Shown in pieces: positions 2,041 to 5,920 of a stretch of 61,695 nt of DNA (position 1 is its first letter; the number at the start of each line of letters is the position of its first letter). Origin of the DNA: Escherichia coli (GTDB lineage: Bacteria > Pseudomonadota > Gammaproteobacteria > Enterobacterales > Enterobacteriaceae); the NCBI RefSeq assembly GCF_003334385.1, contig NZ_QOWN01000027.1. One strand, written 5' to 3'. The translations under genes were made by a program, and so were the position numbers. The notes beneath the pieces were generated by a model, which worked only from the letters and a program-made list of their open reading frames with translations, ran no database searches and was not told the DNA's origin.

Positions 2041-2615
2041 TGGCATTCAGAATGAGTGAACAACCACGGACCATAAAAATTTATAATCTGCTGGCCGGAA
2101 CTAATGAATTTATTGGTGAAGGTGACGCATATATTCCGCCTCATACAGGTCTGCCAGCAAACAGTACCGATATTGCACCGCCAGATATTCCGGCAGGCTT
2201 CGTGGCTGTTTTCAACAGTGATGAGGCATCGTGGCATCTCGTTGAAGATCATCGGGGAAAAACCGTCTATGACGTGGCTTCCGGCGACGCGTTATTTATT
2301 TCTGAACTCGGTCCGTTACCGGAAAATGTTACCTGGTTATCCCCGGAAGGGGAGTTTCAGAAGTGGAACGGCACAGCCTGGGTGAAAGATGCAGAAGCAG
2401 AAAAACTGTTCCGGATCCGGGAGGCGGAAGAAACAAAAAACAGCCTGATGCAGGTAGCCAGTGAGCATATTGCGCCACTTCAGGATGCTGTAGATCTGGA
2501 AATCGCAACGGAGGAAGAAACCTCATTGCTGGAAGCCTGGAAAAAGTATCGGGTGTTGCTGAACCGTGTTGATACGTCAACTGCACAGGATATTGAATGG
2601 CCAGCACTGCCGTAG
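2040..2615 (+). CDS. tfaQ: Tail fibre assembly protein (191 aa)
   Basis: 191-aa ORF immediately downstream of the tail fibre gene with a 1-nt stop/start overlap; length and context fit the Tfa chaperone family. Confidence 0.8.
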
Positions 2616-3303: not shown

Positions 3304-3434
3304 AGTGAGACTCTATACGAAATTGGTGTTCATATCATAATGCATCTCAGAAAATAATTTTGATTATTTTTGTGCATATTTGTATGTACACGTTCGAAAA
3401 TAAACGAATGCGTATGCAACCCCGTAACTTTGGT

Positions 3435-3460: not shown

Positions 3461-3619
3461 ATGGCTTTAACTCGGTTTGTTTTTCGAGTTCCGGGCGGAC
3501 TCAAGGAAGAAGAATAGTGTTGCGTGTTATTTTAACCAGATTTCAAGTTGTTTGGTCGTGGAAAAGTGGAGCAAAATGTTGTTAAAGTGGAAAAATGATA
3601 AAAAAGTAAGTTTATTATA

Positions 3620-3853
3620 TTACATTTTACCATTTAAATTTTGGTTGTCTTTAAGAACTGATATCGCTGTTTGTAATAATTCTTTGTTATCCAGCCATGA
3701 TTTTTTCTTTATGTTTCCTTCAATGTAATCAAGCAATGTTCTGGTATTGATAGGTCTTCCCTGTTTTGCTACTTCCACTACAGCATCCCCTAGGATAATT
3801 CTTACTTCAGGAAGCTGCGCAGGGAACCACTTTAGGGTGTCTTTTGATTTCAT
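3620..3853 (-). CDS. ydfK: Prophage cold-shock-associated small protein YdfK/YnaE family (77 aa)
   Basis: Protein recognised as YdfK-like from memory of the K-12 sequence. Start taken at the internal ATG (MKSKDTLKW...), which gives 77 aa; the ORF track extends to 3886. Confidence 0.65.
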   Translation of the reverse strand: MKSKDTLKWFPAQLPEVRIILGDAVVEVAKQGRPINTRTLLDYIEGNIKKKSWLDNKELLQTAISVLKDNQNLNGKM

Positions 3854-4636
3854 GAAGATATTCCTTAAAATATTATTGATTTTCATTGCGATATTGTATG
3901 TCTGATTCAGGATATGTTGACTTATACATCGGTTTTGTCTGGGTTATTGGATATGCCAATCCCTAATTTTATTAGGGCATGACTAAAAATGCTGAATATG
4001 ATAAGGAGAGAAGTGATTATCAGTATGCTGTTCATATAGCCTCGAATTAGTAATGTGTTATATATGATATAGTTGACAATTTTATCTTGGGTGTTCTTAA
4101 AGTTCGTAGATAAACATTGTCGTTTCAGGTATACAGGAATGCTAACAGGTGGCGGCAAAAATCAGGCGGTTTATGGCGCAATCTGAAGTGGCAACTGCAA
4201 ACTATCTTATGCAGAGACTCTACACGGATTGGGTTTAAAAGTATACATAGATAACAGTTTTTATCTGAAGAAGAAAAATATCAAGGTGATATAGCCTATA
4301 TGCCTTTGATGTGGAGGAATGAATGTGATGGGAGTGATGTATCTGAATAGTTGAAAAACCGCAGACACACCTTATGCAAGAACGTGCTGCGGTTGGCTGG
4401 TAAATTTTTCGATAGTGCGAGTATTGAATGATTTCCAGCCGTTATTGATTTTACGCGTAAATCCATGAAAAAACTACTTATCTGTTGGGGAGTTTTTTGG
4501 GGCATATATGGGACAGAAATAGGCCCCAGATAGACACTGAGATCGAACTTAGGATGCTTTTAAAAAAATGCAACTATCTGAAAAAACCTAGAAAACGCCA
4601 AGGAAACCACAGGATGGGAAAAAACACCTGTGAATT

Positions 4637-5920
4637 ATGGATTTCCAGTTATATTCGCTCGGCGCAGCGTTAGTGTTTCATGAAATATTTTTTCCTGAAT
4701 CATCAACGGCAATGGCGTTAATTCTGGCAATGGGAACCTACGGTGCAGGTTATGTGGCGCGTATTGTCGGAGCATTTATTTTCGGCAAAATGGGCGACAG
4801 AATAGGGCGTAAAAAAGTGCTCTTTATTACCATCACCATGATGGGGATCTGTACCACCTTAATTGGTGTGTTACCGACCTATGCACAGATTGGTGTTTTT
4901 GCACCCATCTTGCTGGTGACGTTGCGTATTATTCAGGGGTTGGGTGCAGGTGCGGAAATTTCCGGTGCCGGTACGATGCTGGCGGAATATGCGCCAAAAG
5001 GTAAGCGCGGAATTATCTCCTCATTTGTGGCTATGGGAACTAACTGCGGAACCTTGAGCGCAACGGCAATCTGGGCCTTTATGTTCTTCATTCTCAGTAA
5101 AGAGGAACTGCTGGCGTGGGGATGGCGTATACCGTTCCTGGCGAGCGTTGTCGTGATGGTCTTTGCTATCTGGTTGCGTATGAATCTGAAAGAAAGCCCG
5201 GTCTTTGAGAAGGTTAACGACAGTAACCAACCGACAGCAAAACCTGCACCTGCTGGTAGCATGTTCCAGAGCAAATCCTTCTGGCTGACAACAGGGCTGC
5301 GTTTTGGTCAGGCGGGTAACTCCGGGTTAATTCAGACTTTCCTTGCAGGCTATTTAGTGCAGACGTTATTGTTTAACAAAGCAATTCCAACAGATGCATT
5401 GATGATCAGTTCGATTCTCGGCTTTATGACCATTCCGTTCCTTGGTTGGTTATCCGATAAAATTGGTCGCCGGATCCCGTATATTATTATGAATACCTCC
5501 GCGATTGTGCTGGCATGGCCAATGCTTTCTATCATTGTAGATAAAAGCTATGCCCCGAGCACCATTATGGTTGCACTGATTGTGATTCATAACTGTGCGG
5601 TGCTGGGATTATTTGCTCTGGAAAACATTACCATGGCAGAAATGTTCGGCTGTAAAAACCGCTTTACCCGGATGGCTATTTCTAAAGAAATTGGTGGTCT
5701 TATCGCTTCCGGTTTTGGTCCTATCCTGGCGGGTATTTTCTGCACCATGACGGAATCCTGGTATCCGATCGCCATTATGATCATGGCATATTCAGTGATT
5801 GGTTTAATCTCTGCGCTGAAAATGCCAGAGGTGAAAGACCGTGATTTAAGTGCGCTGGAAGACGCTGCGGAAGATCAACCGCGTGTTGTAAGAGCTGCGC
5901 AACCTTCCAGAAGTCTGTAA
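4637..5920 (+). CDS. ydfJ: MFS transporter YdfJ, probably N-terminally truncated at the prophage junction
   Basis: 427-aa ORF with MFS motif A (GKMGDRIGRKK) only about 50 residues from the N-terminus, suggesting the first transmembrane helix is missing. Upstream DNA is AT-rich prophage-like sequence. Confidence 0.7.
   Translation: MDFQLYSLGAALVFHEIFFPESSTAMALILAMGTYGAGYVARIVGAFIFGKMGDRIGRKKVLFITITMMGICTTLIGVLPTYAQIGVFAPILLVTLRIIQGLGAGAEISGAGTMLAEYAPKGKRGIISSFVAMGTNCGTLSATAIWAFMFFILSKEELLAWGWRIPFLASVVVMVFAIWLRMNLKESPVFEKVNDSNQPTAKPAPAGSMFQSKSFWLTTGLRFGQAGNSGLIQTFLAGYLVQTLLFNKAIPTDALMISSILGFMTIPFLGWLSDKIGRRIPYIIMNTSAIVLAWPMLSIIVDKSYAPSTIMVALIVIHNCAVLGLFALENITMAEMFGCKNRFTRMAISKEIGGLIASGFGPILAGIFCTMTESWYPIAIMIMAYSVIGLISALKMPEVKDRDLSALEDAAEDQPRVVRAAQPSRSL

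Follow-up and report, generated by a model that had tools for sequence, protein, structure and literature searches.

In a 61,695-nucleotide (nt) stretch of Escherichia coli DNA (RefSeq assembly GCF_003334385.1, contig NZ_QOWN01000027.1; hereafter the window), the first 4.6 kb hold phage genes, namely those for a tail fibre, tail-fibre assembly, a Pin-type invertase and ydfK, and are followed by chromosomal DNA from ydfJ and ydfI onward. Between ydfK and ydfJ, a first-pass annotation made from the sequence had described a prophage/chromosome junction at which insertion had apparently truncated ydfJ, and had singled out a small open reading frame (ORF) of 37 codons on the minus strand as resembling a type I toxin or small membrane protein. 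The segment is the known attR end of a Qin-type lambdoid prophage inserted in ydfJ, and the small ORF is ynfT, whose product, encoded in a prophage accessory cassette, is most likely a small membrane protein with a single membrane span. The features that make up the junction are the following:

4356..4634 (no strand): attR end of the Qin-type prophage, attP-derived arm, about 90% identical to that of a different prophage integrated in ydfJ

4631..4645 (no strand): attachment (att) core TGAATT(T)ATGGATTTC, from the alignment of attB (L002), attL (L003) and attR (window)

4637..5920 (plus strand): ydfJ', a 5'-truncated pseudogene of the metabolite/H+ symporter (MHS) family of major facilitator superfamily (MFS) transporters, with 427 of 455 codons; flagged as a pseudogene by RefSeq

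An intact ydfJ of 455 amino acids (aa) is found between rspB and ydfI in L002, a genome whose ydfJ site is free of prophage and reads GCGCTTGAATTTATGGATTTCCAGTTAT around the breakpoint. Across the junction, the window reads CACCTGTGAATT-ATGGATTTCCAGTTAT. The opposite prophage end (attL) lies outside the window and was taken from a K-12-like genome (L003), where it reads CTTGAATTTATGGATTTC joined to AAGAGTCATGCGTGTTAA. Comparison of these attB, window and attL sequences revealed the common core, within which the ungapped identity to attB is TTATGGATTTC (4635-4645). The core is found a single time where no prophage is integrated and is repeated at either end of an integrated one, as expected if the window end is an attR site. 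The uninterrupted ydfJ homologue does not begin at the window ATG, in keeping with truncation of the window copy by prophage insertion. In the K-12-like genome, a tyrosine integrase pseudogene adjoins attL, and the gene order is pinQ, ydfK (234 nt), ynfT (114 nt) and ydfJ, the last flagged as 'incomplete; missing N-terminus'. The window comes from another strain and is ~98.7% identical to K-12-like genomes over 3600-4700. A 9-mer, GATTTCCAG, is found at 4430-4438 in the att arm and again at 4640-4648 across the boundary between core and chromosome, either by chance or as an integrase-related site. Short repeats in the att arm were also considered as integrase arm sites and dropped, as their frequency is at chance level.

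The window ATG at 4637 corresponds to Met29 of the native protein, so 28 N-terminal codons are missing from the gene, and the 5' part of ydfJ is not found in the window. MFS motif A (GKMGDRIGRK) occupies residues 50-59 of the 427-aa window ORF, in agreement with the first-pass annotation, which had placed it about 50 residues from the start and had found this consistent with loss of the first transmembrane (TM) helix. The metabolite/H+ symporter model TIGR00883 still scored 452.8 bits on the window protein against a cut-off of 443.45, with the match starting at profile position 7. As hydropathy places the first hydrophobic segment of YdfJ at about residues 13-46, the cut falls inside TM1 and not after it, and the N-terminus of the 12-helix core, TM1 included, is incomplete in the window protein. 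By this hydropathy estimate, the lost part would comprise the cytoplasmic N-tail and roughly the first half of helix 1. The predicted truncation thus holds, but it does not remove exactly one helix. At the K-12-like attL (L003, 2580-2690), the first 31 ydfJ codons run through the duplicated core and continue into five prophage codons, and the resulting 36-aa fusion peptide, MTIEKHERSTKDLVKAAVSGWLGTALEFMDF+KSHAC, is listed as YnfP (PMC6001520). Because the 5' piece of ydfJ runs into prophage codons, the insertion gave rise not only to a pseudogene but also to a small fusion ORF. The K-12 ydfJ pseudogene, which is split by Qin and has ynfP as its 5' fragment, shows the same breakpoint, the same core and the same 427-codon 3' fragment as the window. 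Integration by site-specific recombination at the core parted ydfJ codons 1-28 from the remaining 427, and the 28 codons stayed at the other prophage end, where they are annotated in K-12 as part of the fusion peptide.

Of 5,426 complete E. coli genomes, 2,009 (~37%) matched a 201-nt probe across attB without interruption; in most of the others, the match was broken at the core, indicating that ydfJ is a common integration site for prophages. When 3600-4700 of the window was used as a megablast query, 5,351 of the same genomes were matched, and 2,017 (~37%) had the same right end beside ydfJ, on the criterion that one place span 80% or more of the query. Annotation at these matches names ydfK, ynfT (as YnaM/YnfT family protein) and ydfJ. 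Another prophage found at ydfJ has no pin, ydfK or ynfT, and has its last ~280 bp (4356-4645) in common with the window at ~90% identity. As this stretch is common to different ydfJ-integrated prophages, we assigned it to the attP-derived arm.

On the prophage side of the junction, the interval between the ydfK and ydfJ ORFs spans 750-783 bp, depending on whether ydfK is started at 3886 or at its true start, 3853. The AT-richness reported for it is borne out, with a GC content of 0.33-0.40 over 3890-4640 versus 0.44-0.52 inside ydfJ. It had also been described as free of any confident gene and as containing unassigned small ORFs; this has to be revised, as RefSeq annotates 3922..4035 as ynfT and two family models match its product. 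From ydfK towards the junction, the features are:

3620..3853 (minus strand): ydfK, encoding a 77-aa cold-shock protein, downstream of ynfT; RefSeq annotation in near-identical genomes

3854..3921 (minus strand): ynfT-ydfK spacer of 68 nt, containing the ydfK Shine-Dalgarno sequence, an AT-rich stretch that resembles a Fur box, and a promoter-like site, TCAACA-16-TACAAT, at 3920..3893

3922..4035 (minus strand): ynfT coding sequence, 37 aa, YnaM/YnfT family; RefSeq annotation, NF041477 and PF23676

4040..4043 (minus strand): ynfT Shine-Dalgarno sequence GAGG with a 4-nt spacer to the ATG, kept in the Salmonella copy

4044..4358 (minus strand): non-coding prophage DNA upstream of ynfT, ~320 bp, a putative promoter region with its best consensus match, TTCAGA-18-TATACT, at 4269..4240

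4359..4392 (minus strand): orphan intrinsic terminator, a hairpin followed by UUUUUC (-17.4 kcal/mol, z = -2.65)

The ORF has the 37 codons, the strand and the GAGG 4 nt before its ATG that the first-pass annotation gave it. YnfT matched NCBIfam NF041477 with 63.9 bits (curated cut-off 35) over profile positions 1-34 of 34, and Pfam PF23676 (YnaM) with E = 7e-28 over positions 1-37 of 37. The gene also has the genomic context of the family: it lies in a prophage, with ydfK/ynaE next downstream in the same orientation. In K-12, ynfT (Qin) and ynaM (Rac) encode the identical 37 aa and occupy the same place upstream of ydfK/ynaE, near the right end of their prophages. One TM helix was predicted at about residues 4-28, together with a conserved polar tail, SNNPDKTD; the grand average of hydropathy is 0.99, and mean hydropathy over residues 1-28 reaches 1.9.

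Expression of the peptide is documented in K-12. Among MG1655 small proteins that were fused to a sequential peptide affinity (SPA) tag and detected, the identical 37-aa peptide appears twice, as ynaM (Rac) and as an ORF between ydfJ and ydfK (Qin) (VanOrsdel et al. 2018, PMC6001520). Detection in that study was by chromosomal SPA epitope tagging and immunoblot, and both genes were also positive in a tetracycline ribosome-profiling screen (PMC6001520). YnaM-SPA exceeded most of the newly found small proteins in abundance (Weaver et al., 10.1101/511675), and tagged YnaM accumulates in exponential and stationary phase and is readily detected in lysogeny broth (10.1101/511675, PMC6001520). No start-codon peaks were seen for YnaM/YnfT by Weaver et al. 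(10.1101/511675), presumably because reads from the two identical copies were discarded.

A 37-aa, strongly hydrophobic, prophage-borne peptide encoded in AT-rich DNA where nothing else is annotated could be a type I toxin, that is, a membrane-damaging peptide whose translation is checked by an antisense or divergent small RNA (sRNA) of the same locus. With the type I toxins Hok/Gef, Ldr, TisB, ShoB, Ibs and ZorO, YnfT shares its small size, its hydrophobic character, a single helix and its location on a mobile element. Two weak signals could supply the RNA: a plus-strand promoter-like TTGATT-16-TAAAAT (3844-3871), which could drive a transcript antisense to ynfT, and a CssrB-like match divergently upstream. 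However, promoter-like matches occurred at the frequency seen in shuffled sequence (7 found versus 5.6 expected). The Rfam match to CssrB, a Shigella sRNA, lies on the plus strand and reached 22.8 bits versus a gathering score of 76, its well-matching part being the terminator hairpin alone; nothing relevant on CssrB was found in the literature. No Rfam antitoxin family was found at gathering score, although one encoded entirely within the ORF would show up only in transcript data. A Pfam scan at E <= 10 gave YnaM alone and no Hok, Ldr, TisB, Ibs or Fst, and PADLOC was without a match. The folding of the locus did not exceed that of shuffled sequences (sense z = -0.86, antisense z = -0.09), the non-coding flanks are not conserved between the E. 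coli and Salmonella cassettes, and there is one copy per prophage with no tandem repeats. YnfT thus differs from the type I toxins: it matches none of their families, no antitoxin RNA was found for it, it has neither tandem copies nor a conserved untranslated region, and it is detectable as a chromosomally tagged protein during normal growth, in both growth phases. This ready detection also speaks against tight repression of its translation in normal growth, and published work does not report toxicity of the untagged peptide. We therefore consider a toxin very unlikely. Of the two possibilities raised at the outset, a real gene for a small hydrophobic protein stands, and toxicity is unsupported.

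Conservation sets ynfT apart from its surroundings. An exhaustive search of representatives among 1.84 billion proteins with YnfT as query returned only 4 with E < 1e-3, and at 90% identity the family falls into an E. coli cluster and a Salmonella cluster. Such a very narrow family, for which no functional paper or reported phenotype was found in the literature, might be expected of a translated but functionless hitch-hiker in a young, nearly clonal prophage module. The substitution pattern between the E. coli and Salmonella genes argues against this. Of the 20 codons that differ, 12 changes are synonymous and 8 non-synonymous, and the 12-residue tail is invariant despite five silent changes. 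By the Nei-Gojobori method, the ratio of non-synonymous to synonymous substitution rates (dN/dS) is 0.07-0.11 for ynfT versus 0.08 for ydfK. dS is ~1.0-1.6, near saturation, while dN is ~0.1, and length, start, stop and Shine-Dalgarno sequence have been kept. Homology of the cassette extends from 10-20 nt before the ynfT ATG to just past the ydfK stop, whereas the flanking non-coding DNA, including that upstream, has in the same time drifted to the identity expected of random sequence. These data show that ynfT is under purifying selection, a new result here, and make a hitch-hiker even less probable than a toxin. The small ORF therefore has both the translation and the conservation on which its standing as a gene depends.

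The start of ydfK was settled by its protein. The intact mass of YdfK measured by top-down mass spectrometry is 8772.78 Da (PMC5594050), which equals the 8772.80 Da calculated for the 77-aa form and not the mechanical ORF of 88 aa from the ATG at 3886. The start is therefore the ATG at 3853, and the spacer to ynfT is 68 nt long. Each gene is present in 2,803 of the 5,426 E. coli genomes, ynfT at 3,380 places and ydfK at 3,371, and both occur in the same 13 phage records, at 16 places (ynfT being searched by tblastn, in which the hydrophobic N-terminus was masked and residues 23-37 aligned). In every copy, ynfT is located 68-74 nt upstream of ydfK on the same strand. The pair forms a cassette shared by two kinds of element: in E. 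coli lambdoid phages it separates the tail-fibre genes from att, and in Salmonella P2-like prophages it lies beside sopE. Strict linkage of ynfT to ydfK is thus shown here as a second new result.

The same arrangement could reflect a leader or upstream ORF that controls the cold induction of ydfK on a common mRNA and encodes a functionless peptide. Cold-shock mRNAs typically carry long regulatory leaders, and the orphan terminator upstream isolates ynfT and ydfK as a unit; their constant spacing and strict linkage are also points in favour. Against a leader, purifying selection acts on the whole YnfT peptide, and above all on its tail, as strongly as on ydfK, and distant ydfK homologues have no such ORF; on these two grounds in particular we disfavour it. 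Moreover, the tagged peptide is stable and fairly abundant, neither a cspA-type thermoregulator nor any other Rfam leader was matched, and the leader region shows no excess structure. We regard a leader as about as improbable as a toxin.

The account that we consider likely, with good though not complete confidence, is that of a Qin-type attR junction in ydfJ with YnfT as a non-toxic membrane protein in the ydfK cassette, rather than a type I toxin. Judged from its hydropathy and conservation, YnfT would act as a single-pass small protein of the inner membrane, and its conserved polar tail would probably contact a partner protein. It may resemble the small inner-membrane regulatory proteins MgrB, AcrZ, MgtS and SafA in size, in its one predicted TM helix followed by a short conserved polar tail, and in its stable accumulation. 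It differs from them in being phage-borne and restricted to Escherichia and Salmonella, and there is no sequence relationship. Together, ynfT and ydfK may constitute an accessory cassette of two genes, or 'moron', that the lysogen expresses and in which YnfT may act jointly with YdfK.

Several points weigh against this account. The C-terminal SPA tag could inactivate a toxic peptide, so that accumulation of the tagged form is no proof of harmlessness. The membrane location of YnfT is a prediction from hydropathy, and the gene was still listed as uncharacterized in a 2024 survey (PMC11551758). The promoter described below was placed by a consensus match of chance frequency together with low-resolution binding in vitro. 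Finally, distant YdfK homologues (55-64% identity) lack a ynfT-like ORF upstream; YdfK thus does not need YnfT, which weakens the case for joint action.

The remainder of the gap holds signals for transcription. In vitro RNA polymerase binding peaks from genomic systematic evolution of ligands by exponential enrichment (gSELEX) lie upstream of ydfK/ynaE (PMC3946193, PMC5493296) and fall, by our own coordinate conversion and at low resolution, at window positions ~4209-4311. The region 4044..4358, which is not conserved in Salmonella (identity 0.3-0.47), probably carries the ynfT promoter. Prophages L006 and L007 also conserve the hairpin at 4359..4392. A related prophage integrated at prfC carries a dinI-like gene that stops immediately before its counterpart of the hairpin; as the window prophage has no dinI-like gene, the hairpin here is an orphan terminator. 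The spacer between ynfT and ydfK is 57-67% identical to its Salmonella copy. Its promoter-like site came from a consensus scan and is not above chance, and a Fur cluster has been predicted at the start of ydfK/ynaE (PMC2189734). Two further ORFs in the gap, 4296..4505 on the minus strand and 4485..4673 on the plus strand, had no credible family match and were dropped. The gap is thus prophage DNA that runs, from the junction inwards, through the attP arm, the orphan terminator hairpin, the probable promoter region and ynfT, and its 750 bp are now fully accounted for.

For YdfK itself, no match was found in PADLOC, in the copy of Pfam-A used or in NCBIfam. Its predicted fold resembles YmgB/AriR, and overexpression of either ydfK or ycgZ lowered the expression of ytfK in a screen. 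ycgZ is located in one operon with ymgB. Together, this suggests a connector-type regulator, which we regard as a lead and not a finding. In loci L014-L016 (~2170-2740; E. coli, Enterobacter and Limnobaculum), a distant ydfK is divergent from a gene for a YnfU-like zinc-knuckle small protein (PF23499), so that ydfK recurs next to small-protein genes in differing arrangements. Reported ydfK 'mutations' under phage stress (PMC12844343) were disregarded as probable mis-mapping between the Rac and Qin paralogues.

Two observations concern the phage genes further into the prophage. Window positions 2383-2581 (plus strand), in the 3' part of the tail-fibre assembly gene, match Rfam IS009 (RF02111) with 226.8 bits versus a gathering score of 117, and this match is present in every related prophage and phage locus examined. 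Upstream of pinQ, at 3363-3390 on the minus strand, a promoter-like TGTACA-16-AATAAT is the hexamer pair proposed for pinQ and pinR in a published gSELEX study.

The split ydfJ and ynfT are already known and stand in the current E. coli annotation, and the peptide was verified in 2018. As a discovery, the junction and its small ORF therefore matter little: the finding is correct but ordinary. Its useful outcome is a negative one, in that a toxin can be set aside for a protein that about half of the sequenced E. coli genomes carry. Overall, the purifying selection on ynfT and its linkage to ydfK provide a concrete entry point for studies of YnfT.
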